Under the pieces are notes generated by a model. It was not told the origin of the DNA and did no database searches. It worked only from the letters and a program-made list of their open reading frames with translations. 64,000 nt of DNA from Deltaproteobacteria bacterium (GTDB lineage: Bacteria; Myxococcota_A; Polyangia; JAAYKL01): positions 9,039 through 73,038 of the forward strand of contig JAUVDV010000007.1 in assembly GCA_030595125.1 (NCBI GenBank). Direction: 5' to 3'. Position 1 is the first letter of the stretch. The number at the start of each line of letters is the position of its first letter. The translations under genes were made by a program, and so were the position numbers. Positions 2,275 to 52,886 of the stretch are shown piece by piece.

Positions 2275-2694
2275 ATGCATAAAATGCTAATTGTGTCCTT
2301 ATTGGTGGCGTCTGGTCTGGGGGCAGTCACTTTCGGTTGCGGCAGTGATGACAGCCGTGGATCGGGAGATTCCGATTCGGACAGCGACTCGGATACCGAC
2401 ACGGACACGGATACGGATACGGACAGCGACACAGATTCTGATTCAGATACGGACACGGATGCCGACACGGATACCGACACGGATGCGGATACCGATACGG
2501 ATACCGACACTGACACCGGCACCGATACCGGCACTGATACCGGCTCTGATACCGGCTCTGATACCGGGCCGGATCCTTGCCCCCCGACTGCCCCGACACC
2601 GGGAGGTTCGTGCTCGCCCCTCGGATTGAGCTGCTCCTACATGCCCCTGACGGTCTGCGTGTGTGAGGTCTCCGGTTGGCTTTGCGCCTATTAG
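2275..2694 (+). CDS. Small secreted (S/T)D-repeat protein with a Cys-rich C-terminal module. Putative lipoprotein or secreted.
   Basis: Signal peptide MHKMLIVSLLVASGLGAVTFGCGS, then about 70 residues of SD/TD/AD dipeptide repeats, then CPPTAPTPGGSCSPLGLSCSYMPLTVCVCEVSGWLCAY. RBS-like ggaggga sits 8 nt upstream. Confidence 0.6.
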   Translation: MHKMLIVSLLVASGLGAVTFGCGSDDSRGSGDSDSDSDSDTDTDTDTDTDSDTDSDSDTDTDADTDTDTDADTDTDTDTDTGTDTGTDTGSDTGSDTGPDPCPPTAPTPGGSCSPLGLSCSYMPLTVCVCEVSGWLCAY

Positions 2695-3053
2695 ATGCAG
2701 AGCATCGCGACTAACAATACCAGCCCGGATCCCGTCACGATGATTTCCTCCACGACGAGAAACCTCGGTTTGATCACTCTCATCAGGCGGTAGACGGGCT
2801 GGCTGACGGCCAGCGGCATCAGGCCGAGGGCCAGTGGGTTGATGGCGACGCTCCTTTCCAAGTCCCCGGCGAGCAGGGCCGCCGCAGCGGTGGTGGTTCC
2901 GCAAAGGGCGCACGGCTCACCGGTCAGCCCGGTATAGGGGCACGCAGTCAGGAAGGAGATAATATCGCCGAGAAGAACAGTGACCCACGCGCTCATGACG
3001 ATCACCAGCAACGCGAGATGAACTCCCCTCGGGTTCAGGCGTGTAGCAGTCAC
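2691..3053 (-). CDS. DUF2752-like membrane protein with a CPxxGxxCPxCGxTRA-type motif
   Basis: The minus-strand translation contains LTACPYTGLTGEPCALCGTTTAAAALLAGDLERSVAINPLALGL preceded by a TM helix. The start is assigned to a GTG that overlaps the upstream stop (GTGA). An alternative start is the ATG at 2995. Confidence 0.5.
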   Translation of the reverse strand: MTATRLNPRGVHLALLVIVMSAWVTVLLGDIISFLTACPYTGLTGEPCALCGTTTAAAALLAGDLERSVAINPLALGLMPLAVSQPVYRLMRVIKPRFLVVEEIIVTGSGLVLLVAMLCI

Positions 3054-3490
3054 GGTTGTGGTTGAGGCTGGACCGGCTCCAAGGGCTCCATCGGTTGCAT
3101 GGGCTCCATCGGTTCCATGGGCTGCATCGGTTGTCCGGGCTGGTTCGACGGGAATCCACCCGGCTGCAACGGTGGAAAACCAAACGGCGGCGCTTGCTGT
3201 CCGGGAACCTGCTGACCGGGAATCTGCTGCCAGGAACCTGCCGGATCGTACATCTCCCCCTGTGAGAACATCAGCACCCACCAGATAACGACCGCTATTA
3301 TCGCCAGCGGATTTAGAATGACCCCGGCGATGGCCGTGCCCTTCGGTCCGCCCGACCTGGACTTGATCACCAGATCGACGATCCCCAGGATGAGCCCGAT
3401 GACCGCCGGGACCAGAGCCCACGTTCCGCAAAAAGGAAAGGCCCCGACAACCAGAGCGATGATTCCTATCACGAGTGAAGCTATGCCCAT
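3050..3490 (-). CDS. DUF4190-like small membrane protein with a Pro/Gln-rich C-terminal tail
   Basis: MGIASLVIGIIALVVGAFPFCGTWALVPAVIGLILGIVDLVIKSRSGGPKGTAIAGVILNPLAIIAVVIWWVL followed by a PQ/PM-rich tail. A strong RBS aggagag sits immediately upstream of the ATG at 3490. Confidence 0.6.
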   Translation of the reverse strand: MGIASLVIGIIALVVGAFPFCGTWALVPAVIGLILGIVDLVIKSRSGGPKGTAIAGVILNPLAIIAVVIWWVLMFSQGEMYDPAGSWQQIPGQQVPGQQAPPFGFPPLQPGGFPSNQPGQPMQPMEPMEPMQPMEPLEPVQPQPQP

Positions 3491-3562
3491 GCTCTCTCCT
3501 GTTGAAGTCGGGATGAGGTCTTCGTAGATCGATGATAGAACAATTCGGGTTGCGCGCAAGAA

Positions 3563-4408
3563 CTACGCGTACTCGAATAAACCCTTCGCGATGGCCTTGT
3601 CCCCCGATCCCTCCACAGTGACTGTCACTGCGGCGCGGCCCGGTTCGTCGAGTTTCCAGCCCTCCACGATGAGGGTATCGCCGGGCATCACGACCTTCGC
3701 AAACCTCGCCTCGAAGGACTTGAAGCGCGCGGGATCGTCACCCGCCAGCTCCTTCAGCGCCACCCGACCCGCGATGCCGTAGAAGCACAGTCCGTGCAAG
3801 ATGGGCCTGTCGAAACCCGCTGCGGCTGCGATCTGCGGATCCGAGTGGATGGGGTTGATGTCGCCGTTAAGCCTGTACAGGAGGGCCTGATTCTCCGTGG
3901 TGGGCACACGCACCGCAAAGTCCGGGTCTGCCCCGGCGGGTGGTCTGACGTTGAGCAATTTCGGCGGACGCTCTCCTCCGAACCCTCCCTCGCCCCGCAG
4001 GAGGAGTTGCCATGACGTCCGTGCGGTCGGCTCTCCATCCACAGCCGTCTCGGTTTCGATGACAATCATCGCGCCGATCTTCATATCCCAGATTCCGCGT
4101 ATCTTCGCTGTTGTGCTCAGAGTTCCGCTCTTTTGAAACGGTCTTACCAGCTCGGTTCGCTGCGCGCTGTGAAGGAGGGTTACCATGTTGCCGCCCGTGG
4201 CCTTCAGCAACTCGAAGACCGGTTCGAACGCCGGCACGATCCCGTATGTGGGGAGCACCTTGTGGGGCGGATTCTCCACCAGGTAGTTCAGGTCTTCGGT
4301 GCCCGCGCTCAGGCCGATGGCGTAGAGGGCGGTGTCGCGCCAGTCGTACTGTCCGGTCAGCGGACCGAGCTCGCGACCCACGGTTTGAAGGTCGATTGTC
4401 ATTTGCAT
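3563..4408 (-). CDS. MaoC-like (R)-specific enoyl-CoA hydratase/dehydratase, double hot-dog
   Basis: About 280 aa with hot-dog motifs (NGDINPIHSDPQIAAAAGFDRPILHGLCFYG). RBS gaggg 4 nt before ATGCAAATG. Confidence 0.72.
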   Translation of the reverse strand: MQMTIDLQTVGRELGPLTGQYDWRDTALYAIGLSAGTEDLNYLVENPPHKVLPTYGIVPAFEPVFELLKATGGNMVTLLHSAQRTELVRPFQKSGTLSTTAKIRGIWDMKIGAMIVIETETAVDGEPTARTSWQLLLRGEGGFGGERPPKLLNVRPPAGADPDFAVRVPTTENQALLYRLNGDINPIHSDPQIAAAAGFDRPILHGLCFYGIAGRVALKELAGDDPARFKSFEARFAKVVMPGDTLIVEGWKLDEPGRAAVTVTVEGSGDKAIAKGLFEYA

Positions 4409-4412
4409 ACCC

Positions 4413-4991
4413 TCACTTTTCACCCGTCGCCAGGCGTTGTTCATCGAAATCTGCGGCGTTTCGTCGTACCTGATCGAGGTTGTCCCCGAGGCGGATCTTT
4501 TCCTTGATCAACTCGTCACGGTATGTCGCCAGCCCCCACTCCTCGCCCGCACGGGCCATCTGAAAACTACCGCCGCGAGTGGTCTTGACCGTAGCCGTGG
4601 TTTCGGTCAGGGCGCTGATTTCCGTCACGGCTCCGAGTCCCCGGGCAAGTTTTCGCAAGCAATCGTGCCGAGAACAGAAGGCCGAAAACACCTCGTGGGC
4701 ATTCTTCGATCCGGCCGCTTTGGCCCAGGTTCCGTAGACCGTGGCGGGATCTTGGCGGTCCGCAGGGTACGATTGGTCCACGATCTCGCCGATGGTCTTC
4801 AGGGTTCGATGGATCGTGGCGAGGGACCAGCGGCTGTCGCGGTCGAGCTCCTTAAAAAGACATCCGGTATCCGCCAGATCCACGCAGGGGGCCAACCTGG
4901 CAAACGCTCCCGCCGGGTCATTTCGAGATGGTGGTGGCGATTGGCAACCGGTTGCGATGGCGAGCAGCGCGACGGCGACTATGGTTCTCAT
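4413..4991 (-). CDS. Hypothetical lipoprotein
   Basis: Signal peptide plus lipobox MRTIVAVALLAIATGCQS. No recognisable catalytic motif. Confidence 0.5.
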   Translation of the reverse strand: MRTIVAVALLAIATGCQSPPPSRNDPAGAFARLAPCVDLADTGCLFKELDRDSRWSLATIHRTLKTIGEIVDQSYPADRQDPATVYGTWAKAAGSKNAHEVFSAFCSRHDCLRKLARGLGAVTEISALTETTATVKTTRGGSFQMARAGEEWGLATYRDELIKEKIRLGDNLDQVRRNAADFDEQRLATGEK

Positions 4992-5111
4992 GGTGTGCCA
5001 ATAACACGGGGCAAGCGCGTTGGACAAGCACATGAAGAAGATGATATATCGACGCGACGGGCGTAGATAAACCGGCTCGATCCGGTCCCCTTCAAGGAGA
5101 TATTTCGACGA

Positions 5112-7217: not shown

Positions 7218-7222
7218 TCTCC

Positions 7223-9042: not shown

Positions 9043-9161
9043 AATTCCTCCAATAAGTTGAGGAAAATTTTATCCGCTAGTCCGGGTAGCGTCAATTGTC
9101 GGCGAGGCGTTGTTATGCTTCATTTTTCTCGTCGGTGGTCGAAAACCGGTATGATCCCTCC

Positions 9162-10193
9162 ATGTATATAAAAACAACCATTTCGATCTTTTCCCTGACG
9201 TTCATTGTCTCCGCGTGCGGATCCACATGCTCCGATGATCGCAGTGGCGCCGCGCAATCGACCGAACCACCAGAACAGACGAGCGCCACCCCCGATCCTC
9301 CCGCAAAGATCGCGGTGTCCCCTCTGAGTGTCGAGGCAAGGGAGTCGGGCATCAAGCCTCTCGTTCACACCGCTTCTCTTTCAACAGCCGGGACCGACGA
9401 TACATCCGATCCGGAGGCCCTGATCGTGGTTCGCGCCGGCGAATCGTCCGCGCTGCAAGGGATCACCCACGGGAAGGGAACGGAATGCTGGGTAGAGTCG
9501 GGATGGGAGGTCGATTTCGGGCTCGGACCCCTCGAGGATTTGTTGATGAAGTGGGTTACGATCGACAAGCGCGGAGCGGTTACCATCAAACCGCCAAGAG
9601 AAGCGCTCGGAGTCGCATTCATGTTGAGCGGCTGTGATCCGAAGAAGCCCGAGTGGACACGAAAAATTATTGCGATCGGCGCGGAGGGTCTTCATTCATA
9701 CAGATCCGCTCGCAGATACATTGAATCTCGATCAGGTGATACTGCCCTTCCCCCCGGCTTTCCGGACGAGGATCCGGTGCACTCGGTGAAGCTCACGCCG
9801 GTGGTCGTCTTTCGCTCTGACCTGGACGGGGACGGAAAGGGGGAGGTTCTGGTCTATGGATTCAAGAGCTGGCTGGACGACGAAGGGGATCAACTGGCCC
9901 AGGCGGGGGAGTTGGGAATAGTGTGGTCAAATCCCGAGAAGCGATCGTCTTCCGCTGTCTTTGGCCTTTCCCAGGGAGTTGCTTTTCCGTTTTTTCACGT
10001 GGTGCCCCCCGAGTTGAACGGCGGCTCCCATTTGTTCTACGGCGTACACCGCTGCTGCGGCGGGACCACCCTGCGCCACCATCACCTGTCAGGCACGATC
10101 TTCTCCGATGAGATATTCGAGACGAAGGAGGGAGATCGCTCCGTTTTCCTGACTCCCTCCGCCGATGGGCGGGCCAGGATCGCCATCGATTGA
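9162..10193 (+). CDS. Hypothetical lipoprotein with an FG-GAP-like DxDGDG segment
   Basis: Start MYIKTTISIFSLTFIVSACGS (lipobox). Contains FRSDLDGDGKGEVLVYGF. Confidence 0.5.
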   Translation: MYIKTTISIFSLTFIVSACGSTCSDDRSGAAQSTEPPEQTSATPDPPAKIAVSPLSVEARESGIKPLVHTASLSTAGTDDTSDPEALIVVRAGESSALQGITHGKGTECWVESGWEVDFGLGPLEDLLMKWVTIDKRGAVTIKPPREALGVAFMLSGCDPKKPEWTRKIIAIGAEGLHSYRSARRYIESRSGDTALPPGFPDEDPVHSVKLTPVVVFRSDLDGDGKGEVLVYGFKSWLDDEGDQLAQAGELGIVWSNPEKRSSSAVFGLSQGVAFPFFHVVPPELNGGSHLFYGVHRCCGGTTLRHHHLSGTIFSDEIFETKEGDRSVFLTPSADGRARIAID

Positions 10194-10418
10194 GCGGCGC
10201 AGACGATTCTTAATGACAACCAGGTTGGCAGGTAACCGCAAACTCGGTTGACATAATGGTCGTGAAAAATGTGTCTGGCACCCTTGTGGTTGGGTTGTTA
10301 GAGATGGCTGAAAGATTAATATAATCATATGTTTGGCGATAACACCTCCATGTGGCCGGCTATTTGCAATTTAGCAGAATGCCATGGGTTGGACACCCGG
10401 TCGGTTGCTGACAAGGAG

Positions 10419-12437
10419 GAAAATGTCATGAAAAGGTTATCTCTCGCAATAATGGTTCTGGTCGTCGGTTACGCGATGATGCACATGAGTTGCATGGATC
10501 GAGAGCCCGCGCCGGTCTGCCCGGTTCCCACCGAACTCAACGTGACCGAGGCGATGATCGGTGGTTTCGAGGGCGTGGACATGCTGGTTGTCGTGGATAA
10601 CTCCGGTTCCATGGCGGAGGAGCAGGAGATCCTGGCCACCGCGTTTTTCCCCCTGGTAAATTCGCTGGTCAATCCGCTCCCCGACTGGGGTTGGCCCAGT
10701 GTGGACGATGTTCGCATCGCCATCGTCACGTCGGACATGGGGCTATCCTGGGGCGGAAATCCCTACGAGGAGGGCGACGGATGGCCGGGAACACCTCCGT
10801 GCACCGCGACGGGTGACAACGGTGTGTTTCAGACATACGACAGCGGCATGACTATAGACATCGAGCACGACGTGATTTCGTGCGACAGCACCAATGCCCA
10901 GTGCCCAACCGGCTGGACCTGCAGCGCAAGCGATTCAGATGAAATCGGCACTTGCCAGGCCCCCGGCGGAGATGGCGCCAACCAGCTTTGTCCGGACTTG
11001 AACTCCACCTGGTCCGAGATCCTGCCGAACTCCCCCAACGCGGACATGGCGTTCGAGGTGGCGTGCCTGGCGGATCAGGGGACCAACGGCTGCGGTTTCG
11101 AGCAGCAGCTTCAGTCCGCCGCAGCGGCGCTGAGTCGATCCGATCAGGATACCTTCGTTCGAGAAAAGCGCCTGCTGACCATCTTGGTAGTCAGCGACGA
11201 GGGTGACTGCTCCATGGAGGACGGTCCGGCAATGTTCGCCTCCGACGAGATCCAGGATGAGAGCGGAATATCCAAGAAGAATATCGCTTGCGGGGAAAAC
11301 CCGGATTTCCTGTACGATGTCGAGCACTATTTCACCACGTTCACCGGGTTCAAAGAAGCTCCCAACAGCGTGATCTTTGCGTCCATCATCGGTGTGCCCA
11401 CGGAGAATGTTTGTCAGGGCACCGGCGACACTCTGGGCGATTGTCTCGATCACCCGGACATGGAGCTCAACCCGGTGGTCAAACCGGGTCCGACCGGCAC
11501 CGACACCTGGTACTACGAGGACGCGTGTACTCGCGGCACCGTGACCCAGGCCAAGCCGGGACGTCGCTACGTCCAGCTGGCCAACGAAGAGTTTGGAAAA
11601 ATGAGCTACGTCTACTCCATTTGTAATGCCGATTGGGGCCCCGCCATGGCGGAGATCGCGCGTCTCATCGCGTCCCAGATAGAGGGAACCTGCTACGAGA
11701 AACCCCTCGACTGGGATCCCTCCACCAGACAGGCCAAGTGCGACGTGGTAGTCGAGTACATCAACCCGGAAGACGACGAGTGTCCCGGCAATTTCGACGA
11801 CGACGAACCGGTCATTGTCAAAGATGAGAACGATGACGAGGTGGAGAACACCTTCGTATACTGCCGCATGCCCAAGATCGCGGCGCCCAAAGACTGCGCC
11901 GATATCGACGAGGGCAGCATGAACGACAAGTTCGGCTGGTACTACTGTGAGAATCTCGGTCGTGAGGATTTCAAGGATGCGTGCGAGGATGGCAGCGACA
12001 ACGACAACGACGGTCTGGTGGATTGCGATGACCCGGATTGTCAGGCCTGCCAGCTTTGCGGCGGCACCGAGGCGTGTACCGGCCTCTGCAAGTACATGGT
12101 CCAGCTCACCGCACCCGCCGAGGAAGAATCCATGCACCGTTCCATCTCCGTACAGTGCCTGCAGCAGTTCTCATTCGAGGACGAGAACTGCCAGGAGGAC
12201 TCACAAAAGGCGTGCGAAGATGGTCTGGACAACGACGGGAACGGCATCTGGGACTGCGACGCCGTGAGCGTCGACGATGACGAGGACAATCCGCACATGG
12301 CGGATCCCAATTGCTGCCCCATGATCAAGGAAGGCACGTCCTGTAAAAAGGTCAACACCGATTATTGCGGCGGAGGCGATGCCGGCAATATCGACGCCTG
12401 TCTGGCACACGCCAGCCTGCTCGGTTGCACTCTTTAG
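10419..12437 (+). CDS. Secreted von Willebrand factor A (VWA) domain protein with an extensive Cys-rich region and two CxDGxDNDxDG metal-binding-like motifs
   Basis: RBS aaggagg 8 nt upstream. Signal peptide MKRLSLAIMVLVVGYAMMHMSC. MIDAS-type motif VVVDNSGSM. More than 40 Cys in total, including ACEDGSDNDNDGLVDCDDPDC and ACEDGLDNDGNGIWDCDA. Confidence 0.7.
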   Translation, partial: ENVMKRLSLAIMVLVVGYAMMHMSCMDREPAPVCPVPTELNVTEAMIGGFEGVDMLVVVDNSGSMAEEQEILATAFFPLVNSLVNPLPDWGWPSVDDVRIAIVTSDMGLSWGGNPYEEGDGWPGTPPCTATGDNGVFQTYDSGMTIDIEHDVISCDSTNAQCPTGWTCSASDSDEIGTCQAPGGDGANQLCPDLNSTWSEILPNSPNADMAFEVACLADQGTNGCGFEQQLQSAAAALSRSDQDTFVREKRLLTILVVSDEGDCSMEDGPAMFASDEIQDESGISKKNIACGENPDFLYDVEHYFTTFTGFKEAPNSVIFASIIGVPTENVCQGTGDTLGDCLDHPDMELNPVVKPGPTGTDTWYYEDACTRGTVTQAKPGRRYVQLANEEFGKMSYVYSICNADWGPAMAEIARLIASQIEGTCYEKPLDWDPSTRQAKCDVVVEYINPEDDECPGNFDDDEPVIVKDENDDEVENTFVYCRMPKIAAPKDCADIDEGSMNDKFGWYYCENLGREDFKDACEDGSDNDNDGLVDCDDPDCQACQLCGGTEACTGLCKYMVQLTAPAEEESMHRSISVQCLQQFSFEDENCQEDSQKACEDGLDNDGNGIWDCDAVSVDDDEDNPHMADPNCCPMIKEGTSCKKVNTDYCGGGDAGNIDACLAHASLLGCTL

Positions 12438-12564
12438 CTCACGTTCCGCGCCCTCTTTATCCATAAACGGTCTTTGCCCTACACTTCGGTTGACAGACAC
12501 AAACCTCTTGGAGCCTAATTGACCGAAACCGCCATTCCCCGTGGGGGAAAAGGAGAGTCGACTC

Positions 12565-13362: not shown

Positions 13363-13375
13363 GGAAAGTCATCAG

Positions 13376-14517: not shown

Positions 14518-14526
14518 ACCGGTTTC

Positions 14527-14967
14527 TCAGTTGGGAAGGCACACCTTGCGGTTCTCGGTTCCTCCACCTGTGGAGCGGCAATGGAACTCGGGATGAACGT
14601 AGTACTCGCAGTAGTTCTCTTCGTCTTCCACATTTTCGCAGGTTACAAAACAGTATTTTTCGGGTGCGGATTCCAGCGGCGCGCACACCTGGGGAAGGTC
14701 TGATTTGCATTCACCGTCGACGGCACAGCAATTTTCGTCGTCCAGACAGGTGTGGGTGCAGTATCCCCCCTCGACGTTTTCCGACAGGCACTCGATATCC
14801 CCCTCGATGGCGTCCGTGTCCGCCTCGGGGTAACATTCTTCCGGTCCTTCACATGGTTGTCCGGCGTACTCTTCGTTGTAATCGTCATTGTCATCATCAT
14901 AATCGCAGGCTGTGACATACACGCTCGCAACCAGCAGGAATACAGGCAGAACTATGACTATTTTCAT
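14527..14967 (-). CDS. Small secreted acidic Cys-rich protein
   Basis: RBS aaggagg 7 nt upstream. Signal peptide MKIVIVLPVFLLVASVYVTAC. 16 Cys in about 120 mature residues. Acidic (D/E-rich). Confidence 0.5.
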   Translation of the reverse strand: MKIVIVLPVFLLVASVYVTACDYDDDNDDYNEEYAGQPCEGPEECYPEADTDAIEGDIECLSENVEGGYCTHTCLDDENCCAVDGECKSDLPQVCAPLESAPEKYCFVTCENVEDEENYCEYYVHPEFHCRSTGGGTENRKVCLPN

Positions 14968-15087
14968 GAAGGGGCCTCCTTGTGAAGCAAATGTCATATT
15001 ATACAGGACGTTATGGGATTACAAAAGGGGTCCCGGGTTTGCTCTGCGCTTCTTCGAGTCGTGACACCTTTGCCCGGTGTGGTACTA

Positions 15088-15108: not shown

Positions 15109-15125
15109 CGGAAAAGGAGAGAGAA

Positions 15126-17159: not shown

Positions 17160-17162
17160 GGC

Positions 17163-18056
17163 TCAGATCCAGGTGATGGCAGAGACCGTGTACCCGTTGT
17201 AGGTGATCGAATAGTCGCTATCGACACACGTTATCGCCTGATCATCTTGTACGAGCTGGCTGTAAGAGCCGTTGTAGGTCCCGGTGAAGAGGATGGTGCC
17301 CGAGCCGTTCTTCACGTAGAAATCGTCGCAGCACGACTCCACGTCGTAGGTGCCGACAATGCACAGGGCCACCGCTCCGAGACCGCTCAGGTCCCACAGC
17401 CTATAAGCGCTGTCCGATGAATAGCAATACTCGTCATCGTAGTAGCCGCTCGTGTCGAAGGGGATTCCCGTGGTGTAACTATTGGGCAGGGGGCAGCTGA
17501 GCGCGGCCCACTCCAATTCGGCGGTGAAGGCGCTCTCTAGCGGGGTTCCGCACACGTCGGTCACGCCGGTGCTCACCTCGATGGTGTAGGTTTCGCCCCA
17601 GCTGACCCCGGAGAACGCGATATCGTAGGTCGCTCCATCTACCTGAGTGATCGAGTCGAGCACTCCCGAGCCGCCGGAAGTGGCGGTCCAGGTGACGGAG
17701 GCGCCGTCCACGTTTTCCACGTCCTCGCTGAAGGTGAGCTGGTACGTGCCCGAGGTGTCGACCGCTTGCAAGCTAATCGCGATGTCACTTGTTACTGACG
17801 GCGCCCCGGCTACCGGATCGGTACACTCGGAATCGGTATCGGAGTCGGTGTCGGAATCAGTGTCAGAATCGGTATCGGAGTCGGTATCAGAATCGGAGTC
17901 GGTATCGGAGTCCGTATCGGAGTCGGAGTCCGAATCGGAGTCCGAATCCGTATCCCCTCCTCCGGTGGGCTTGATCTCCGTATCCACGCATCCGGACACC
18001 AGCCCGATCAGCGCGAGCGTGGTTACAATGTACCGGATCATTTTTAGTTGCCGCAT
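17163..18056 (-). CDS. (S/T)D-repeat lipoprotein with a Cys-containing C-terminal globular domain
   Basis: RBS gaggag. Lipobox LALIGLVSGC. 60-aa DSDSDTDSD tract. C-terminal domain with about 8 Cys. Confidence 0.6.
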   Translation of the reverse strand: MRQLKMIRYIVTTLALIGLVSGCVDTEIKPTGGGDTDSDSDSDSDSDTDSDTDSDSDTDSDTDSDTDSDTDSDTDSECTDPVAGAPSVTSDIAISLQAVDTSGTYQLTFSEDVENVDGASVTWTATSGGSGVLDSITQVDGATYDIAFSGVSWGETYTIEVSTGVTDVCGTPLESAFTAELEWAALSCPLPNSYTTGIPFDTSGYYDDEYCYSSDSAYRLWDLSGLGAVALCIVGTYDVESCCDDFYVKNGSGTILFTGTYNGSYSQLVQDDQAITCVDSDYSITYNGYTVSAITWI

Positions 18057-18181
18057 GAAAGGTCTCCTCACACTTATTGCGCCCGATATGTTTTTTTCAA
18101 CTCTTCGCACGCTGTGAAGGGTATTTTATCATAGGAACTGTTATAAATGGGACATCGTTTTTAAAGGGACTTGGGACTAAT

Positions 18182-19798
18182 ATGAGCGCGGACACTTATA
18201 CGGGAAAAACCCTCGACGGGAAGTATCGCCTGACCACTCTTCTGGGCCAGGGCGGTATGGGCTCTGTGTACAAGGGAGAGCACATCATCATTGGAAAGAT
18301 GGTGGCGATCAAATTCCTGCACTCGGAGCTCGCTCAGAACGAGGAAGTGGTCAAACGTTTCTACCGGGAGGCCCAGGCCGCCGCAGCCATCGGGCACGAC
18401 GCCATCATCGATGTGCTCGACGTGGGCATCTCTCCGAAGGGCGAACCTTACCTGGTCATGGAGTACCTGGAAGGGGAGAGCCTCGGCGAGATGCTGGCCC
18501 GCACGGGTCCCATGGAGCTGGGTGCGGCGTGCGGGATCATGGAGCCCGCCCTGCTGGCTCTCAACGCAGCGCATATCAAGGGAATAGTGCACAGGGATCT
18601 CAAGCCCGACAACATCTTCATTGTCCGCCAGGAAAATGCCCCCCCGAAGATCAAGCTCATCGACTTCGGGATATCCAAATTCATCGAGGGAGTTGGCGGG
18701 GAAAAACTCACCCAGACCGGTTCCGTCATGGGCACGCCGGCCTACATGGCCCCCGAGCAGGCCCGTGGCTCCGCCGATCTCGACCACAGGGCCGACATTT
18801 ACTCGATGGGCGTCATTTTCTATGAGATGCTCACCGCCAAGCTTCCCTTCAATGGAAGCAACTTCACCGAGATCATCATCAGCATCCTCACCGAGAACCC
18901 CGTTCCTCCTCTGGAGGCCTTCGAGGGATTTCCGGTCGAGGCACATGACGCGCTGTTTTGCTCGCTCAACAAGGATCCCGCCGACAGATATCAGAACGCG
19001 GTGGAATTTGTGGAGACCCTCAAGGGACTTACCGCGTTCGATGGTCGTCAGGACAAACTCACCCGGATAGCCGCAGCCGCCAACAAGATCACATTCGCCG
19101 GCGGAAGCCTGGGGGATACCTCCGGTGGGGGACTCGAAGACAGCCAGGTCGCGGCCAACGTGCTGTCCCAGGTGGCTGCCCGCCAGGGTACTCCAGCCGG
19201 GTGGACGCAGACGAAGCCCGCGTCAGGATCCCAGACCAGGACGCTCCTGCTCGTGGTCGCCGCCGCCGCAATCATAACAATCGGTGGTGTGATTACAGCT
19301 GTGCTCGTTTCGGGCAACAGTTCGGATCCGGCCCCGGGAACACTTGCGCCCGTTGAGGCCCCAACCGCGCCGCAGCCCACCTCGGTGACTATCAGCGTCG
19401 AAGGAGCGCCTGACGGCGCCCGCATCTTCTTCGACGATATGCTGGTGACCATAAATCCCTTCACGGTAAACAGGGTCGACTCGAACGCTATCCTGCGTGT
19501 CGAGAAAGATGGTTTCGAGCCCTTCGTGGCCTCGGTGATGCAGAACGCCGATCAGAAGATAGTCGTTTCGCTCAAGCCCGGATCGGCGGATTCGGCCTCG
19601 AGTGTTGTGCCCGAAAAGAGCGGGTCGGCAAAAAGCTCGTCCAGGTCGAAGAAGAAAAAGAAGAAGTCCAAATCGTCGACCGCGTCGCCTCCCGCGATTA
19701 CTTCCGCACCGGGACCCAAGACCACAAAGCCGCCAAAGAAAAATTCCTCGCTGCAAAAAGGAGCAAAGGGGACTAAGATGGCGGATAAATTCGAGTAG
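18182..19798 (+). CDS. Hanks-type Ser/Thr protein kinase with a TM segment, an extracytoplasmic PEGA domain and a Lys-rich tail
   Basis: GQGGMGSVYKG...VAIK...HRDLKPDNIF...DFGISK...GTPAYMAPE kinase subdomains. TM LLLVVAAAAIITIGGVITAVLV. PEGA-like SVTISVEGAPDGARIFFDDMLV...VEKDGFEPFV. KKKKKKSK tail. Confidence 0.85.
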   Translation: MSADTYTGKTLDGKYRLTTLLGQGGMGSVYKGEHIIIGKMVAIKFLHSELAQNEEVVKRFYREAQAAAAIGHDAIIDVLDVGISPKGEPYLVMEYLEGESLGEMLARTGPMELGAACGIMEPALLALNAAHIKGIVHRDLKPDNIFIVRQENAPPKIKLIDFGISKFIEGVGGEKLTQTGSVMGTPAYMAPEQARGSADLDHRADIYSMGVIFYEMLTAKLPFNGSNFTEIIISILTENPVPPLEAFEGFPVEAHDALFCSLNKDPADRYQNAVEFVETLKGLTAFDGRQDKLTRIAAAANKITFAGGSLGDTSGGGLEDSQVAANVLSQVAARQGTPAGWTQTKPASGSQTRTLLLVVAAAAIITIGGVITAVLVSGNSSDPAPGTLAPVEAPTAPQPTSVTISVEGAPDGARIFFDDMLVTINPFTVNRVDSNAILRVEKDGFEPFVASVMQNADQKIVVSLKPGSADSASSVVPEKSGSAKSSSRSKKKKKKSKSSTASPPAITSAPGPKTTKPPKKNSSLQKGAKGTKMADKFE

Positions 19799-19831
19799 AG
19801 GTTGTTGGAAACCAGCGTTCCTGGAGGTGAG

Positions 19832-21100: not shown

Positions 21101-21204
21101 TCAGCATTTGCTGTGACGAAACTTCCATATTTTTGGAAAAATCTACCGAAAAAGAACTCTAATCGGTTAAAATCAGTAGCTTCGTTTTTCAGACAGGAGT
21201 TGTG

Positions 21205-22923
21205 ATGACCCGTATAAATTCGTTTGTCATTTTCATTTTGGTTTGTTTCGTTTTCTTGTGGTCGAGCTGTGGCGAAGGTTCGGGGCTGAGCCAGTTCATG
21301 GATTCGGGAACGAACGATACGGACGGCGATTCGGATACGGACGGCGATTCGGATACGGACGGGGATTCGGATTCGGACGGCGATACGGACGGGGATTCGG
21401 ATTCAGATACGGATACGGATGCCGATTCGGACACGGATTCGGATACTGACGCCGACACTGATACGGATTCCGACCCGGAGTGCCTCGACATGGATTCGGA
21501 CTGGTGGTGCGAGGACTTCGATTGCAACGATACGGATTCGTCCATCAACCCTGGCATGACCGAGATTCCCGGCAACTCGATCGATGACGATTGCGACGGG
21601 TTTACCGACGAGACCGGGACCGACACTGACACGGACACTGACACCGACACGGATACGGATACGGGCACCGACACGGACACCGACACTGATACTTCGACAT
21701 GCGGAACCAGTGTTTTCGTACCGGAATGCGGAACCCCCACGGGTTGTAACTACTCGCTCGTAAACGAGGCAGCGCATTGCGATGGTCTCGACAACAACTG
21801 CAACGGCACCGTGGACGAGGGTTGCTCGTGTCAGATCGGGATGGTTCAGAGCTGCTTCCTCGGACCCCCCAACTACCACAACGTGGGCGCGTGCGTTGAC
21901 GGGTCGCAGAGCTGCGTGCCCGTGGGAGAATTCGGAACATGGGGCCCGTGCACCGGCGGAATAGTACCAACTCCCGAAGTCTGCGATTACGTGGACAACG
22001 ATTGCGACGGGTGCGTTGACGACGATCTCTGTTGCTCACCGCCCATCGATTGCTCGTACCCCGTGGGCGATGCCCAGCCTTTCGTAACCAAAACGATCAC
22101 CGGTTATCCGGGAATCTACAACGCATCCGACTGGAACACCGCCATATGGACCTGGTCGCTCACGCAGGGGCCGTGCGATATCGTGCTGGGAACCAACAGC
22201 TTCACCATGAACGGATCCGCCGTCACCTCGGTCTCGGGAGCGGGTCTGTCGACACTCAATCTCTATTTCAATCTGTCGGGAACGCACACATTGACGCTCA
22301 CCATCGTGTCCCCGATTAACGGAACCCTCACCTGTACCTGGGTGATAAACGTGGTTGCCCAGGGACTTCGTGTCGAGCTGTGCTGGGATACCACCGGAAC
22401 AGCGGACATAGATCTGAGACTGGGTAGAACGGATTCCAGTTACACGAGCGACTGGTTCTCGACCACGTTCGGGCACGAGGACTGCGGGTACAACAACTGT
22501 AAAGACTACAACCACGCCGTTAACTGGGGTTATCCGGATGTCGGCGGCAACCCGAACCCTCGCCTCGATATAGACAACATTTCCACGTCTGGTATTCCGG
22601 AGAATATCAATCTCGACAATCCGGGTTCGGGTCACAGCTTCCGGGTGCTCGTGCACTACTACGGCACATCGACCACCACACACCCGGTGGTCAATATCTA
22701 CTGCGGCGGAATACGCAAGACCACCTTCGGGTTGAGCCCGCAGGTCACCGGTTTCAACAACGCTGGATATTGGGACGGCGGGGACGGATGGAAGGTCGCC
22801 GATATCGAATGGGCCGGCGGCGTGTGGAGCGACACGTGCGTCATCGACCCGGTGCTGACCACGTCGTCGGCTTACTGGGTGGAGACCGGGCCGTTCAGCT
22901 GGAACAACCCCACATTCCCGTAA
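21205..22923 (+). CDS. (S/T)D-repeat lipoprotein with three CxDxDNDCDG metal-binding-like motifs and a large C-terminal beta-rich domain
   Basis: RBS aggag 5 nt before ATG. Lipobox FLWSSCGEGS. Two TD/SD tracts. Motifs SIDDDCDGFTDE, CDGLDNNCNGTVDEGC and CDYVDNDCDGCVDDD. Confidence 0.65.
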   Translation: MTRINSFVIFILVCFVFLWSSCGEGSGLSQFMDSGTNDTDGDSDTDGDSDTDGDSDSDGDTDGDSDSDTDTDADSDTDSDTDADTDTDSDPECLDMDSDWWCEDFDCNDTDSSINPGMTEIPGNSIDDDCDGFTDETGTDTDTDTDTDTDTDTGTDTDTDTDTSTCGTSVFVPECGTPTGCNYSLVNEAAHCDGLDNNCNGTVDEGCSCQIGMVQSCFLGPPNYHNVGACVDGSQSCVPVGEFGTWGPCTGGIVPTPEVCDYVDNDCDGCVDDDLCCSPPIDCSYPVGDAQPFVTKTITGYPGIYNASDWNTAIWTWSLTQGPCDIVLGTNSFTMNGSAVTSVSGAGLSTLNLYFNLSGTHTLTLTIVSPINGTLTCTWVINVVAQGLRVELCWDTTGTADIDLRLGRTDSSYTSDWFSTTFGHEDCGYNNCKDYNHAVNWGYPDVGGNPNPRLDIDNISTSGIPENINLDNPGSGHSFRVLVHYYGTSTTTHPVVNIYCGGIRKTTFGLSPQVTGFNNAGYWDGGDGWKVADIEWAGGVWSDTCVIDPVLTTSSAYWVETGPFSWNNPTFP

Positions 22924-22969
22924 CCCCATCCCGGCCTTCCCCTGAGATAGGGGAAGGGGAAGATGATGG
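22924..22969 (+). repeat. About 45-nt conserved hairpin element, copy A (ccccatcccggccttcccct-loop-aggggaaggggaagatgatgg)
   Basis: 9-bp stem ccttcccct/aggggaagg with loop gagat. Lies between convergent gene ends. The same element occurs at 52841, 58478 and 60927. Confidence 0.8.
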
Positions 22970-22979
22970 GGGCCAACTT

Positions 22980-23297
22980 CTAGTGCCCTATTGAGCGCGT
23001 GAGCAGCCGCTCAATTAATCCCTGACTGTAGGTGGTGAGTTCGGTGAAGACCACGCCCATACCCGGCGGATCGTCCTCCACGCGCACCACCTCGCCGGTG
23101 CCCTCGATGGTTTCGATGTCCTCCATGATGACCGTGAACCGCAGGTTGACATAGGTGCCGATCTCGAGCGGAACCTTGGACCGGATGAAGACACCGCTCC
23201 TCGAAATATTCGTCACGTACTCATGGATGAACGCGTCGAAGCTCTCGAACTCCTTGTTGATCGTGACTCGTTCCTGGTCTCTATTTGAATCGTTCAT
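22980..23297 (-). CDS. PilZ-domain protein (c-di-GMP-binding type)
   Basis: 105 aa starting MNDSNRDQERVTINKEFESFDAFIHEY...LSRSGVFIRS...GTYVNLRF...GEVVRV, which matches the PilZ fold pattern. RBS aggagg upstream. ATGA overlap with the rng stop. Confidence 0.65.
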   Translation of the reverse strand: MNDSNRDQERVTINKEFESFDAFIHEYVTNISRSGVFIRSKVPLEIGTYVNLRFTVIMEDIETIEGTGEVVRVEDDPPGMGVVFTELTTYSQGLIERLLTRSIGH

Positions 23298-24847: not shown

Positions 24848-24968
24848 GCGACCGTTAGCGCACTTTCTGTAATAGGACGGCCGGCGACAACCGCGGACCG
24901 ACCGGATGGAAGTGCTGAACAAAGGTACACTCCCATGCCATTGATGATCAAGATAACGATGAGGGCGC

Positions 24969-25664
24969 TCAGGGCCTAATAATTTTGGCTCCTTTGGGGG
25001 GCACGAAGATGAATCGCTTGTGGCCGATGCCGATGTTGGTCTTGACGTTGGTCAGGGTGAAACGGGTGGCGGTGCCGGCGCGGTCGATCAGGACGACCCG
25101 GCTCACCGATGGGCAGGAACCTTCCATGGTCAGGAGTATACGTTCCACCAGCGGGATCGGTGTTCGGGGAACCAGCTCGACGACCCCTCGGGATCCTTTC
25201 GCCGGCTGCGCATCCCCTCCCACAAAACGGGTGTCGAACGCCTGTGTCTCGCGCTCTCCGAGCACAAAGCCAAATGCCAGCGCGACCATATCCTTGCGTG
25301 AAGATCCCTCGATGACGGTCCTGGTTTCAGGTTTCCAGGCGCGGACCACCTTTCCGTCTGAAACCACCAGCATGCGCTGCGGTTTCTTGTATTCCAGACG
25401 GATCCTCGATCCCCGACGGAGTTGAACCGTGCCCTCCATCACCTCCATGTCACCGCCCAGAACGTGGATTGTCTCCTGCGTGAAGTCGGCCTCCAGGCTG
25501 AACACACCATCGAGGCAACCACGTCCGTGGTCCAGCCATGCCTCGATCGGATCCGTCTGGGCGCCGAGTCGATCTCCGGGGAAAGAGGCCAGGGAGATCG
25601 TCGCCAGAACCCAGATACAGGCAACCGCCGGGGTAACTTTCAACGATGTGATGAAGTGTTTCAC
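24969..25664 (-). CDS. LolA-like periplasmic lipoprotein-carrier family protein
   Basis: Signal peptide. Size and beta-rich pattern resemble LolA/LppX-fold proteins. Assignment is tentative. Confidence 0.45.
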   Translation of the reverse strand: MKHFITSLKVTPAVACIWVLATISLASFPGDRLGAQTDPIEAWLDHGRGCLDGVFSLEADFTQETIHVLGGDMEVMEGTVQLRRGSRIRLEYKKPQRMLVVSDGKVVRAWKPETRTVIEGSSRKDMVALAFGFVLGERETQAFDTRFVGGDAQPAKGSRGVVELVPRTPIPLVERILLTMEGSCPSVSRVVLIDRAGTATRFTLTNVKTNIGIGHKRFIFVPPKGAKIIRP

Positions 25665-25672
25665 TGCTTGTC

Positions 25673-27013
25673 TCAGGGAAGGGCGATGGCCTGCCTCGCG
25701 GCCTCGAGGAGATCATTCATTTCCGATCCCCTGGTGAGATCCAGAACGCGAACACCCAAGCGGACGACCTCGGAGCGCCTGGTCTCCAGATGCGGAAGCA
25801 CCCCGTTCGCCAGGGAGGTATCGTCCGGTCCCTTCAGGCGCGTGGAAGTGATCTGAATAGCCGAACCGTCCTTGAACGGGTGAATAGTTTCCTGGGTGTC
25901 GACCCCGGCGGACCGACGACCGATCAGTATACCGCGCCCGGCTTTTCGAATGGCAGATGCGAAAATTTCCGCCAGGCCACTGGTTCCGCCGTTGATTACC
26001 ACTGCCACGGGAACGTCCAGGCGTTCACCGGGCGACCCGGGCTTCGCAGCCCATTTCCGGCTGCCCAGATCCCCGCGCATTTCCTTTGAACCGATGGAAC
26101 CCTTCTTGAGCAACAGGTCCGCCAGGGCGATCATTTCGTCCTCGCCGCCCGCCGCCGCGTTCCTCAGATCGAGCACCAGCCCGCCACAGGATCCGGCGAG
26201 TTCGCGAGCGACGGTTTTTGCCAGACCCTTTCCGAAATATCTCACGTGAATCGAGACCAGGTCCCCGTGACGTTCGAGCAAGAAGGGTGTGAAACTCCAC
26301 GGCGAATAACAGATCTTGATATCTCGTGTGACGCCTCCCCTCCGGGTAACCGAAACCTGGATCTTGTGACCGTCCGCTCCCCACAGCGCGGCGAGCGCAA
26401 TCGGACGCCTGACTCCCGAAACGCCCTTGCCGTTGATCCGGATGATCCTGTCCCCGTGAAGCAGGCCCGCATCGTACGCAGGGGAGCCCTCGTGAACCGC
26501 TATGATCTCGAGGACGTCGTCTTTTGGATAGACTCGCAATCCGAAGCCGACGAAATCTTCCGGAATGGATCCGATCTTCTTGTACGCGGACGGCAGAATG
26601 TAGAACCCGGAGGGATCTTCCATCGCCTCGACCATGGCGTCCATCACGTAGCGCTGGAAGACCGTCTTGTCGAAATCCTCTTGTGAAAGGCTGGCGGCGG
26701 CCAGGGCGGACTCCAGAATTCCGCGCCATGCTCGATTAGCGTCCGGTCCGCTCACCCCCTTTTTTGGAGGGAACATGCCGGGGATCTTGCATCCGGGCGC
26801 CGCAAGATCTTCCCCGCAGACACGCACAGTCCCCGCGCGCAACAGTGTTGCCTCGGGCGGTGGGGCAAGGGCCTTGTTCCGCAGAAAACGCAGGGCCTTT
26901 TCCACCAGGGGCATGGTGACGTTGACGCCCCGCGAGTCGGCAGAGGTCAAAACCGGGATCATTAGAGCACAAAGGAGAACGACCGTTTTAGTGTTCCGAA
27001 GGCGTCCGCGCAT
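25673..27013 (-). CDS. ctp: C-terminal processing peptidase, S41 family, with a PDZ domain
   Basis: PDZ-like GFGLRVYPKDDVLEIIAVHEGSPAYDAGLLHGDRIIRING. S41 core GLVLDLRNAAAGG...VVINGGTSGLAEIFASA. Confidence 0.8.
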   Translation of the reverse strand: MRGRLRNTKTVVLLCALMIPVLTSADSRGVNVTMPLVEKALRFLRNKALAPPPEATLLRAGTVRVCGEDLAAPGCKIPGMFPPKKGVSGPDANRAWRGILESALAAASLSQEDFDKTVFQRYVMDAMVEAMEDPSGFYILPSAYKKIGSIPEDFVGFGLRVYPKDDVLEIIAVHEGSPAYDAGLLHGDRIIRINGKGVSGVRRPIALAALWGADGHKIQVSVTRRGGVTRDIKICYSPWSFTPFLLERHGDLVSIHVRYFGKGLAKTVARELAGSCGGLVLDLRNAAAGGEDEMIALADLLLKKGSIGSKEMRGDLGSRKWAAKPGSPGERLDVPVAVVINGGTSGLAEIFASAIRKAGRGILIGRRSAGVDTQETIHPFKDGSAIQITSTRLKGPDDTSLANGVLPHLETRRSEVVRLGVRVLDLTRGSEMNDLLEAARQAIALP

Positions 27014-27033
27014 GATCGATGAGTTCCTTTCCC

Positions 27034-27894
27034 TCAAGGATGCCAACCCCATCCAGGATACCATCGATTCGCGATCATGTAGAAGAGCACGGTATCGATC
27101 ATCAGGTGCAGGATGATGATGTAGGCGAGCGATTGGGTTTTCTTGTACGTGTAGCCTTGAATCAGCGCAAAGGCGAAGATCAATATCGGGCCCACACCGA
27201 AGAAAGCCATGTCGTAGAGAAAGGCGGTGAAGAAGACCGCCTGGGCCAGGTTTGCCTCACGGAAACTGAAGTGTCGCAACAGGAGCACGAAGGCGAAGTT
27301 GATCCACGCCAGCTCGTCCCATATTCCGACCAGGTTGCAACCCCAGAATATTCGCCAAAGGCCCTCGGTCCGGTCTCCTTCCAGGGGCAGTGGCCATGCG
27401 TGATGGAGGGTCGGCGTCCATTTGAAGAAATAGGCCCACAGTATTGCGAAAGCCAGAGCGGTGCCCAGAGGCAGCCAGATCCACATTTGGAGGGACCATC
27501 GGCCGCTGAACCACCGGTAGTCCAGCGGTGTCTTGAGCCAGTATTTTGCGAGCAGGGCGGGCACCACAAGGATCCCGACGCCGAGCGTGAGGGTCAGTTC
27601 GAGCACGTGCAAATTGGATGTGTCCCCGTCGACCCTGGTGAACCAGAGCACCGTCATTGTGTACGCGAAAAGGACGCAGGTCTTGAACCAATTTCGGTCC
27701 GGACAGCGCCTGGAGAGCAGCAACGATGCCCCCATGAGGGGCCAGCCGAAGAGATTCCAGAAGGGCCAGCCGACCCGGTCTTCCTTGAGGGCGACGATGA
27801 AGATCATGGCCGCGCACATGAGCCACAGAGAGACCCTCTTGGACGTCAACAGGGACGTTGCGCGGGGTGTGTTGTCCATTGCGTTCGTCATCAT
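27034..27894 (-). CDS. CPBP (CAAX protease/Abi) family intramembrane metalloprotease
   Basis: Polytopic protein. Motif 1 EE-like WDELAWINFAFVLLLRHF (E-E-x-x-x-R), then FxxxH-like TAFLYDMAFFG, then HLMIDT (HxxxD/N). Confidence 0.65.
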   Translation of the reverse strand: MMTNAMDNTPRATSLLTSKRVSLWLMCAAMIFIVALKEDRVGWPFWNLFGWPLMGASLLLSRRCPDRNWFKTCVLFAYTMTVLWFTRVDGDTSNLHVLELTLTLGVGILVVPALLAKYWLKTPLDYRWFSGRWSLQMWIWLPLGTALAFAILWAYFFKWTPTLHHAWPLPLEGDRTEGLWRIFWGCNLVGIWDELAWINFAFVLLLRHFSFREANLAQAVFFTAFLYDMAFFGVGPILIFAFALIQGYTYKKTQSLAYIIILHLMIDTVLFYMIANRWYPGWGWHP

Positions 27895-28003
27895 GGAACC
27901 AGGGAGAACTTACACCGAACCGGGGTTCCTGCTCAAGCTCCGGATTGCGACCGGCCCATATCGGGTCTATGTTAGCAATTGAGATGAAAGGTAAATATAG
28001 ATC

Positions 28004-29092
28004 ATGCAAACTACTTTATTCACAACAGCGCTGGCCCTGATCATACTTGGAGTCGTTTCGTGCGAACCGAGCTTGCAAGAACAGATCGATGCGGAGCTGC
28101 GGTCCCACAATGAGTATCTTCTGAATGTGGAGGCCGGTGGGACGACGGTCCCATTGGCCCTGAAGGCGGTATCCGCTGACAAGTCGCCGGATTCAACCCT
28201 GGCAACGGTCTTCAGTACCGATTTCGAAGCCAGCAACGGCGGTTTCACCGGAACCCTCGATTGGGAGTGGGGAGTGTATTCGTTCTCTCCGGTCTGCACT
28301 TCCTACGCTGCGCCGACGGCGCCCCATTCCGGTACCAACATGTGGGGTACGGTGCTGAATGACTGCCATACGAACATAGGAAACAACGACGGATACGATA
28401 CCTGCATCGCGACCAACACTGCGGATGACAGCATCCTCTCCTTCTCCGTCGATCTTTCGCCCTATACCACCGCAACCCTCTCGTTTTGGGAATGGACGGA
28501 CCTTTTCGCCAATTGGGACTGGGCCGAAATCTACGTAAACGGGACGAGCGTCTTTCAGCACTGTGGAGGTTCATACGTGGCGCCGACCGCATGGGTTGAG
28601 CAGACAGTGGACCTGACACCTTTCGTGGGCGGCAGCGCCGCAATCGAGTTTCACATGATGGCGTCGAGTGTTGTGGAACGGGCCGGCTGGTACATCGATG
28701 ACGTCACTGTTTACGAAGGCGGATCGACTGACACCGACACGGACACCGACACGGATACGGATACCGATACGGATACGGACACCGACACGGATACCGACAC
28801 GGACACAGGCACCGACACGGACACAGAGACAGACGCCGATGCTGGCACAGATACAGACGCCGATGCGGACTCCGACACCGATGTCGATACGGATTCCGAT
28901 GCCGATGCGGACACAGACGCCGATGCGGACTCTGACAGCGACGCCGATACGGATTCCGACTCGGATTCCGACTCGGACTCCGACTCGGATTCCGACTCCG
29001 ACTCGGATAGCCTCACCACCGATTCTTGTGCGTGCACTGCGGTGGGCCCTTCGGGAAAACGTTCTATCCTGTCTGTGTTGTCAGGGCTCTGA
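28004..29092 (+). CDS. (S/T)D-repeat lipoprotein with an N-terminal beta-sandwich-like domain (WYIDDVTV ending)
   Basis: Lipobox [11 protein letters not shown]. Globular domain ending [29 protein letters not shown]. Then a 90-aa TD/AD/SD tract. C-terminus [27 protein letters not shown]. Confidence 0.65.
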
Positions 29093-29146: not shown

Positions 29147-30687
<1,541 letters not shown>

Positions 30688-52884: not shown

Positions 52885-52886
52885 TC

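Follow-up and report, generated by a model that had tools for sequence, protein, structure and literature searches.

Four genes with x-Asp tracts

The 64,000-nucleotide stretch analysed here, called the window throughout, belongs to contig JAUVDV010000007.1 of a Deltaproteobacteria bacterium (assembly GCA_030595125.1) and contains four genes, designated A to D, whose products carry long tracts of xD dipeptides in which every second residue is Asp and x is mostly Thr, Ser, Ala or Gly. Translation located the four open reading frames (ORFs) where an original prediction, made from the DNA letters, had placed them, and a six-frame scan of the window found runs of at least five (S/T/A/G)D dipeptides in these genes only (Table 1). 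The tracts measure 42–103 residues, not the 60–100 first given, with a strict tract of 42 residues in B. GC content at third codon positions (GC3) is 0.64–0.75 in A–D, like that of neighbouring genes.

Table 1. Positions of the tract genes, their parts and two neighbouring genes in the window
Feature	Position	Strand	Description
Gene A	2275–2694	+	139 amino acids; predicted signal peptide and lipobox (Cys22), 78-residue acidic linker, 40-residue six-Cys module
Tract of A	2365–2574	+	Strict xD dipeptides 2365–2514, then (T/S)DTG units (TDTG/SDTG) up to 2574
Six-Cys module of A	2575–2691	+	Pattern CPxTxPxxGxxC..C.Y..C.C..GW.C
Gene B	17163–18056	-	297 amino acids; predicted lipoprotein signal (Cys23), 53-residue linker, Big_5 Ig-like domain, C-terminal Cys-containing domain
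Tract of B	17832–17957	-	42 residues, (S/T)D
Gene C	21205–22923	+	572 amino acids; predicted lipoprotein signal (Cys22), linker 1, MopE motif 1, linker 2, MopE motifs 2–3, Ig/PKD-like domain, TerD-like beta-sandwich
Tract 1 of C	21319–21474	+	52 residues, (T/S/G/A)D, within the 70-residue Cys-to-Cys linker
Tract 2 of C	~21613–21690	+	26 residues, TD/TG, separating MopE motif 1 from the remainder; linker 2 = 28 residues
Gene D	28004–29092	+	362 amino acids; predicted signal peptide with lipobox-like Cys20, alpha-helix, MAM-like jelly roll ending WYIDDVTV, ~100-residue tract, C-x-C tail
Tract of D	28727–29008	+	94 residues: TD, then AD/TD, then SD; strict runs 28727–28804 and 28847–29008
C-terminal tail of D	29009–29089	+	C-x-C motif (...DSCACTAVG...); ~26 residues after the tract
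CPBP/Rce1-like membrane protein	27034–27894	-	Divergent from gene D; PF02517 33 bits (cut-off 22.4)
Ser/Thr kinase	18077–19798	+	Cytoplasmic kinase domain, one transmembrane (TM) helix, external PEGA domain

Genes A, B and C fit the PROSITE pattern PS51257 (K or R within the first seven residues, a hydrophobic core, [LIVMFWSTAG](2)-[LIVMFYSTAGCQ]-[AGS]-C, and the Cys at positions 15–35), and their products are predicted lipoproteins in which the tract starts 8–17 residues past the lipobox Cys. The lipobox core of D (VVSC) also fits, but its signal peptide contains no K or R; the stricter G+LPP lipobox pattern is matched by B alone. The design originally proposed for all four genes, a signal peptide with a lipobox-like Cys followed by the tract and a C-terminal module, accordingly holds for A, B and C but not for D, whose tract occupies residues 243–336 of 362, C-terminal to the globular domain.

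With the tracts masked, all cross-comparisons in an all-against-all BLASTP search of A–D gave E-values above 3 (best, 3.5). The genes had been described as paralogs; judged from these comparisons they are four unrelated proteins. The other half of that description, a distinct module in each gene, agrees with both the masked BLASTP and a Pfam search, which assigned Big_5 to B, MopE (PF11617) to three stretches of C (63.6 bits; gathering threshold 27) and a weak InhA-like MAM domain to D, and returned compositional noise only for A.

The three CxDxDNDCDG-type motifs noted at the outset in C are these MopE motifs, and behind them lie about 290 further conserved residues that had been overlooked, forming Ig/PKD-like and TerD-like sandwiches; the solved TerD relative, 2kxt, is described as calcium-binding. 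Homologs of C carry PF11617 as well, one being named a MopE-related protein, and we are confident that the fold of this 687-member, uncharacterised MopE-related family is Ig-like plus TerD-like. The protein encoded by D itself scores 15.3 bits against PF20773 (InhA-like MAM; gathering threshold 26.9), and homologs 60% identical to it carry a precomputed PF20773 annotation. An AlphaFold2 model of the domain (mean predicted local distance difference test score, pLDDT, 81.8) matched the jelly rolls of meprin MAM, InhA2 and CBM35 in Foldseek with E-values of about 1e-5. Structure prediction of the non-repeat domains, the check suggested with the original prediction, identified a MAM/CBM-like jelly roll in D and Ig-like and TerD-like domains in C. 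The D domain has 94 homologs, mostly proteins of about 250 amino acids with PF20773 from several phyla.

Genes A and B have far fewer counterparts. Three homologs of B were found among 5.8 billion proteins, of which both full-length ones (P0216 and P0217) contain the tract; the C-terminal Cys domain is lineage-restricted. The six-Cys module of A gave 14 matches (E <= 1e-3) among 1.84 billion representatives and occurs in tandem, with five to seven copies, in P0218 and P0219. Neither Pfam nor NCBIfam has a model that matches it, and it can now be recognised as a small module lacking a Pfam model. P0220, an ortholog of A (71% identity), shares its layout and has a shorter tract, and P0230 combines the terminal module of A with extra modules separated by two tracts. 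Exact copies of the four proteins were absent from a 15-billion-protein collection and from the contig index, and the three larger globular parts had no significant match in the PDB by sequence search. The domains carried with the tracts (Big_5, MopE, TerD-like plus Ig-like, MAM/CBM-like) are binding-type folds, and we advise that the four genes be named by their globular domains.

Conservation and replacement of the tracts among relatives

The closest genomic relatives are cold-seep metagenome-assembled genomes (MAGs) labelled Deltaproteobacteria (CSMAG_220 and CSMAG_2956), and more distant ones carry the labels Myxococcales or Polyangia. For about 20 kb the window is collinear with loci L002 and L058 (88–93% nucleotide identity in aligned blocks), and it is also collinear with L059 (95%) and L001 (88%); gene A lies outside the region that these loci cover. 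Orthologs keep the tract at the same site at down to 50–57% identity, within 41–62 residues for B and 60–73 for linker 1 of C. The length variation expected between relatives is real: the linker of B has 53 residues in the window, 41 in L002, 47 in L058 and P0216, and 62 in the distant P0217 (57% identity), and linker 1 of C has 70 in the window and L001, 68 in L059, 60 in L002, 62 in L058 and 67–73 in distant orthologs (50–72% identity). Linker 2 of C has 28 residues in the window, 26 in all four of these relatives and 21–22 in distant orthologs. In all close relatives (L001, L002, L058, L059 and P0216) the differences are even-numbered, that is, whole dipeptides, and the ORFs are intact in five relatives.

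Composition is held more tightly at one register than at the other. Across 13 orthologous tracts, 228 of the 232 D-register residues are Asp and the rest are Gly, encoded for Asp by 132 GAT and 96 GAC codons; that Asp is held while its two codons are mixed indicates synonymous change near saturation under retained amino acid identity, and shows strong purifying selection on Asp at these positions. The x-register of the same tracts contains 120 Thr, 74 Ser, 20 Gly, 8 Ala, 5 Asn, 3 Val and 2 Met, with no Lys, Arg, Pro or bulky hydrophobic residue.

Beyond the clade, other linkers occupy the same sites. In distant homologs of C the tract gives way to different acidic stretches of low complexity, for example DNDTEPVSD or ETPENPDT runs, and homologs of D (among them P0127, P0132, P0133 and P0158) have Pro/Thr-rich linkers at the position of its tract, followed by IPTL-CTERM, by a TM helix and RR, or by a dockerin. 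The xD form of the linker is restricted to this clade plus a few other Myxococcota. The finding named in advance as fatal to a special role for the tracts, namely homologs in which they are low-complexity linkers of ordinary secreted proteins of known function, is therefore largely what the comparison returned, except that the proteins concerned have no known function.

Non-anchor ORFs with at least 10 xD dipeptides numbered three in 1.54 Mb of other loci, mostly from Myxococcota, a background of about 2 per Mb compared with four in the 64 kb of the window; four copies in 27 kb are as unusual as first supposed. These three ORFs (L003 2213–3004, L006 and L039) are unrelated to A–D, and the tract follows a lipobox in each. 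In related MAGs, tracts are carried by the same L003 ORF and by P0007, P0012, P0014 and P0230, and it is simplest to suppose that xD tracts are in wide use among the exported proteins of this clade. Genes A–D are not a functional cluster, because B and C are kept in place in relatives, D is a recent insertion and A lies outside the relatives' coverage. They are interspersed with housekeeping genes (ribosomal protein S6, MaoC dehydratase, OmpA-like, PurN, an HdrD-like CCG protein, the Ser/Thr kinase, a PEGA/TPR protein, RNase G, LolA, an S41 protease and IMPDH).

A proposed spacer role and its competitors

We read the tracts, with a probability of roughly 60%, as disordered polyanionic spacers by which this Myxococcota lineage attaches domains of binding or adhesion type, themselves unrelated, to its envelope. 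Their net charge of -0.38 to -0.45 per residue and hydropathy of about 0.30 place them, by composition, far past the Uversky boundary towards disorder, and contour lengths run from 19 to 37 nm (A: -0.40 per residue, about 28 nm; D: -0.45, about 37 nm). The segments following the putatively lipidated Cys in A (78 residues), B (53) and C (70) all exceed 22 residues and fall on the same side of this charge–hydropathy boundary. In these three proteins the tract would form an electrostatically stiffened tether of 19–28 nm contour length between lipid anchor and globular domain, with a second, 10-nm spacer between the modules of C. In D it follows the MAM-like domain, where homologs have a Pro/Thr-rich linker ahead of a C-terminal anchor or dockerin. 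Selection would keep Asp at every second position, small uncharged Thr, Ser, Ala or Gly in between, and total length within bounds, and gain or loss of 6-nucleotide units would alter that length slowly. Position, composition and ortholog comparison all favour this one of the roles originally put forward, that of an elongated spacer holding a domain off the membrane.

Such a flexible stalk would represent a local variation on an established design, not a new system. About half of the outer-membrane lipoproteins of E. coli have N-terminal disordered linkers of more than 22 residues, and it is linker length and disorder, not sequence, that matter for Lol sorting (El Rayes et al., bioRxiv 10.1101/2021.01.05.425367). 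Like the linkers of RcsF, Pal and NlpD in that study (El Rayes et al. 2021), the tracts of A–C stand in an apparently unstructured stretch right after the putatively lipidated Cys, and length and disorder appear to be conserved rather than sequence; a candidate role in Lol-dependent sorting or surface exposure may be considered. The tracts differ from those linkers in being two to three times longer (53–78 residues compared with the >22 threshold), strictly periodic and extremely acidic. The linkers of the D family (with IPTL-CTERM, TM-RR or dockerin ends) and of the C family (DNDTE/PDTP-type) share the position of the tracts but not their composition. The acidic residues close after the +1 Cys of A (C-GSDDS) recall the lipoprotein export signal (LES; PMC5080379), which differs in comprising about 4–5 residues at +2 to +5 and in belonging to another phylum, the tracts being 40–100 residues long and starting 8–17 residues after the Cys.

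The closest likeness in composition is to the serine-aspartate (SD) repeat R region of the staphylococcal Clf-Sdr MSCRAMM adhesins, which also consists of long x-Asp runs with mixed synonymous codons and strain-dependent length, and which also sits between a ligand-binding domain and the anchorage point. The NCBIfam models for ClfA, ClfB, SdrC and SdrD align to the tracts only (E = 1e-8 to 1e-16), and their scores of 20–60 bits lie so far below the cut-offs of 999–2500 that they reflect composition and not homology; ClfA/Sdr matches of this kind in such genomes do not mean adhesin homology. The tract proteins differ from Clf-Sdr in their Gram-negative Myxococcota host, in anchorage by an N-terminal lipobox instead of LPXTG and sortase (no LPXTG occurs at the four C-termini), in an x position ordered T > S > A > G instead of Ser only, in the lack of A-domain homology, and in having no identified SdgA/SdgB-type partner. 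If the spacer reading is right, Gram-negative bacteria have reached the same x-Asp stalk as staphylococcal adhesins, and the tracts offer a clean natural case in which a disordered lipoprotein tether is selected for its composition, periodicity and length rather than for its sequence. Genetic findings on a few lipoproteins of E. coli would thereby extend to a Myxococcota lineage without cultured members.

Several points weigh against a spacer role. Disorder and extension are judged from composition, the structure predictions covering the globular domains; tract frequency in the clade is drawn from about 110 kb, of which about 47 kb comes from close relatives outside the window; the tract of D does not lie between anchor and domain unless its atypical C-x-C tail is anchored; and a plain spacer has no obvious need of strict Asp periodicity, which hints at cation binding, modification or protease resistance. 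This periodicity is the one feature that a plain spacer leaves unexplained, and the tracts may have a role in cation binding or modification.

In the first of these alternatives, which we consider unlikely, the tracts would primarily bind divalent cations (Ca2+/Mg2+) as a reservoir, shield or modulator of carbonate nucleation on a cold-seep cell surface, and spacing would be secondary. Every second position strictly retains Asp rather than Glu, the charge density is as high as -0.45 per residue, the carriers have other putative metal-binding parts (the MopE motifs and the TerD-like fold, whose solved relative 2kxt is described as calcium-binding), and the closest relatives are cold-seep MAGs. 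Asp-rich proteins control CaCO3 mineralisation in molluscs, which offers a parallel. Against these points, homologs in other lineages have Pro/Thr-rich or mixed acidic linkers and the family is nevertheless retained, which suggests that the chemistry of the tract is dispensable for domain function; moreover, the strict position relative to lipobox or anchor is predicted by a tether and unnecessary for a cation sink.

A broader proposal, likewise unlikely, is that the xD tract is a selected, lineage-specific cassette rather than a generic linker, a polyanionic, Ca2+/Mg2+-responsive and possibly modified stalk that would form a 20–35 nm envelope brush in this cold-seep clade and whose shared DNA would let unrelated domains, including new ones such as that of D, recombine onto it. 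Tract DNA of different genes is 85–94% identical over 26–62 nucleotides (A and D, 92.7% over 55 nucleotides), a likeness sufficient to consider that ectopic recombination may be a route of domain shuffling. Were the cassette real, it would be for a Gram-negative host what the SD repeats are for staphylococci, with a distinct biology.

We regard it as improbable that the Ser and Thr residues of the tracts are substrates for O-glycosylation (compare SdgA/SdgB) or phosphorylation and that the modified tract is the functional form, serving protease protection or as a glycan coat. Precedents exist: SdgA/SdgB add GlcNAc to the SD repeats of ClfA and of the Sdr proteins (PMC3794999, PMC8561734), and streptococci glycosylate disordered extracytoplasmic regions rich in Ser and Thr (PMC12041528). 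In the four window proteins, x is Ser or Thr at 100 of 120 positions. However, Ala and Gly are freely accepted at x, and the close homologs P0001, P0014 and L006 rely chiefly on AD or GD, which means that a hydroxyl group is dispensable. A single glycosyltransferase is encoded in the window, a family 4 (GT4) enzyme at 41199–42464; it might seem a candidate modifier, but we rejected the link: its gene sits in an unrelated low-GC glycan cassette 12 kb off without connection to the tract genes. Equally, the adjacent Ser/Thr kinase, to which the original prediction had tentatively tied the tracts, was ruled out as their modifier. It has an N-terminal kinase domain, no signal peptide, one TM helix at about residues 390–412 and an external PEGA domain, a topology that puts the catalytic domain on the opposite side of the membrane from exported tracts, and orthologous loci at 63%, 53% and 72% identity lack the kinase/PEGA–C arrangement (the P0001 locus, on a 140-kb contig, was judged from its gene list).

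Equally doubtful is the idea that the tracts are neutral by-products of slippage in a GC-rich genome, tolerated in exported proteins, or, in a variant, contingency loci for rapid phase or length variation. Tandem Repeats Finder (TRF) detects period-6, -12 and -18 arrays in the tracts, relatives differ by whole dipeptides, tracts of different genes resemble one another at the DNA level as described above, and the 5' half of the C tract is rearranged even in L059, whose locus is 95% nucleotide-identical (97% at the amino acid level in the conserved domain). The arrays have only 65–94% matches, however, and the mixing of synonymous codons limits the longest exact period-6 runs to 14–17 nucleotides, at which slippage should be infrequent. 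The near-invariant Asp register in spite of a near-equilibrium GAT/GAC mix, the persistence of tract presence and length in orthologs of 50–57% identity, and the restriction of tracts to positions after a lipobox or before a C-terminus likewise argue against neutrality, and a 6-nucleotide unit cannot toggle the reading frame. Tract length differs by 0–12 residues between genomes of 88–95% nucleotide identity, and since these differences are seen at 5–12% divergence, they point to slow change unlike that of a contingency locus. We therefore set aside the description of the tract DNA as highly repetitive and slippage-prone and, with it, a hypervariable variable-number tandem repeat (VNTR) or contingency locus, for which long near-perfect repeats are lacking.

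Gene D, its neighbour and other features of the window

Gene D differs from the other three in its distribution as well as in its layout. Relative L002 lacks window positions 27912–29132 and L058 lacks 27102–29132, with an identical right-hand junction, and the best homologs of the D domain are at most about 63% identical and come from other phyla. The simplest reading is that D is an accessory gene that looks like a later insertion beside a pre-existing CPBP gene. That neighbour is 95% conserved in the D-less L002, persists as a 34-residue remnant in L058, and heads a same-strand run with genes for the S41 protease, LolA and RNase G.

MYXO-CTERM proteins have an invariant Cys, often two that are near each other without being adjacent, close to the C-terminus. 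The tail of D has two Cys one residue apart and so carries this Cys signature, a feature that A, B and C lack. As in MYXO-CTERM proteins, a low-complexity region precedes the C-terminal C-x-C, and the model of the MXAN_5453 MYXO-CTERM family aligns weakly to the tract of D (E = 0.018). Those proteins continue with a hydrophobic TM segment and an Arg-rich cluster at the C-terminus; in D no hydrophobic stretch reaches TM length, the terminus lacks clustered Arg, and other reading frames supply neither. Sorting-signal hidden Markov models (HMMs) gave no match to the tail at E <= 10 or to the whole protein at E <= 1, and the NCBIfam sorting-signal models matched neither the module of A nor the domains of B; the suggested MYXO-CTERM-like signal therefore found no model match at any C-terminus. 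With TM helix and Arg cluster missing, we ruled out a MYXO-CTERM identity for the tail.

It might still be supposed that D and the divergent CPBP/Rce1-like gene form a dedicated pair of substrate and sorting enzyme, with the C-x-C tail as a new Cys-type sorting signal and the tract as its stalk, but we hold this to be very improbable. Proteases of the CPBP/Rce1-like type have been proposed or shown to act on MYXO-CTERM and on three further C-terminal signals that contain Cys (Haft, bioRxiv 10.1101/2023.06.07.544157; PMC11980579). The neighbour, of the same enzyme family as the myxosortases, scores above the PF02517 threshold; the spacing of the two Cys is one often seen in MYXO-CTERM, and homologs of D usually end in some C-terminal anchor. 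Set against this are the missing TM helix and Arg cluster, the lack of a sorting-signal match for D and of any match of its neighbour to the curated NCBIfam myxosortase models (of the CPBP signature, only the HxxxD motif was found), the conservation of the CPBP gene where D, apparently inserted later, is absent, and three D-family loci in other genomes that have no CPBP neighbour.

A DUF2238 gene adjoins a D-family MAM-like gene in a CSSED10-type MAG (L138 6001–7442), and in the window (28004–31699) the distance from D to a DUF2238 gene, itself in another segment that varies among relatives, is 2 kb; this may be coincidence. Four segments of the window are missing from L058, a locus of about 90% identity: 9158–12316 (a 702-residue Cys-rich acidic secreted protein), 27102–29132 (the CPBP gene and gene D), 31023–32120 (DUF2238 and a Ppnp-like gene) and 35497–36647 (an Ldh_2 dehydrogenase). 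Where L002 covers these segments, gene D alone is missing, and a longer, different sequence (about 1.0 kb) replaces positions ~31.0–31.7 kb. These differences show small-scale gene flux in an otherwise collinear region.

The GT4 gene mentioned above lies within a low-GC island at 40224–45981 (GC 0.37–0.43 compared with about 0.59; GC3 about 0.3). Its glycan cassette (40.2–45.0 kb) encodes the GT4 glycosyltransferase, a GNAT acetyltransferase, a DegT-type aminotransferase and two ORFs without a Pfam match, and is followed by a DUF4372 gene (the N-terminus of an IS4-type transposase). The island looks like a horizontally acquired amino-sugar/glycan cassette.

Directly 3' of the stop codon of gene C stands one copy of a dispersed intergenic element of about 60 nucleotides with the palindrome CCTTCCCCTGCGAGGGGAAGG, which occurs at 22924–22990, 52820–52886, 58477–58535 and 60927–60982 and in L002 at 11226–11292; it looks like a REP-like (repetitive extragenic palindromic) or terminator-like repeat. 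MopE motifs (PF11617) are also present outside gene C, one each before the catalytic domain of two sulfatases (33297–35495 and 36701–38944) whose genes flank that for Ldh_2.

Two further exported, very acidic, Cys-rich proteins have neither a Pfam match nor an xD tract: the 702-residue protein at 10329–12437 (+), with CEDGxDNDxDGxxDCDDPDC-type motifs, and a 156-residue lipoprotein at 14527–14997 (-) that begins C-DYDDDNDDYNEEY. Finally, the ribosomal protein S6 gene at 1477–2082 (-) encodes a C-terminal extension of about four copies of a 16-residue Lys/Glu/Pro-rich unit (KAPKKEPEPKVAKTEE), corresponding to a 48-bp tandem repeat at 1529–1709 with 93% matches.

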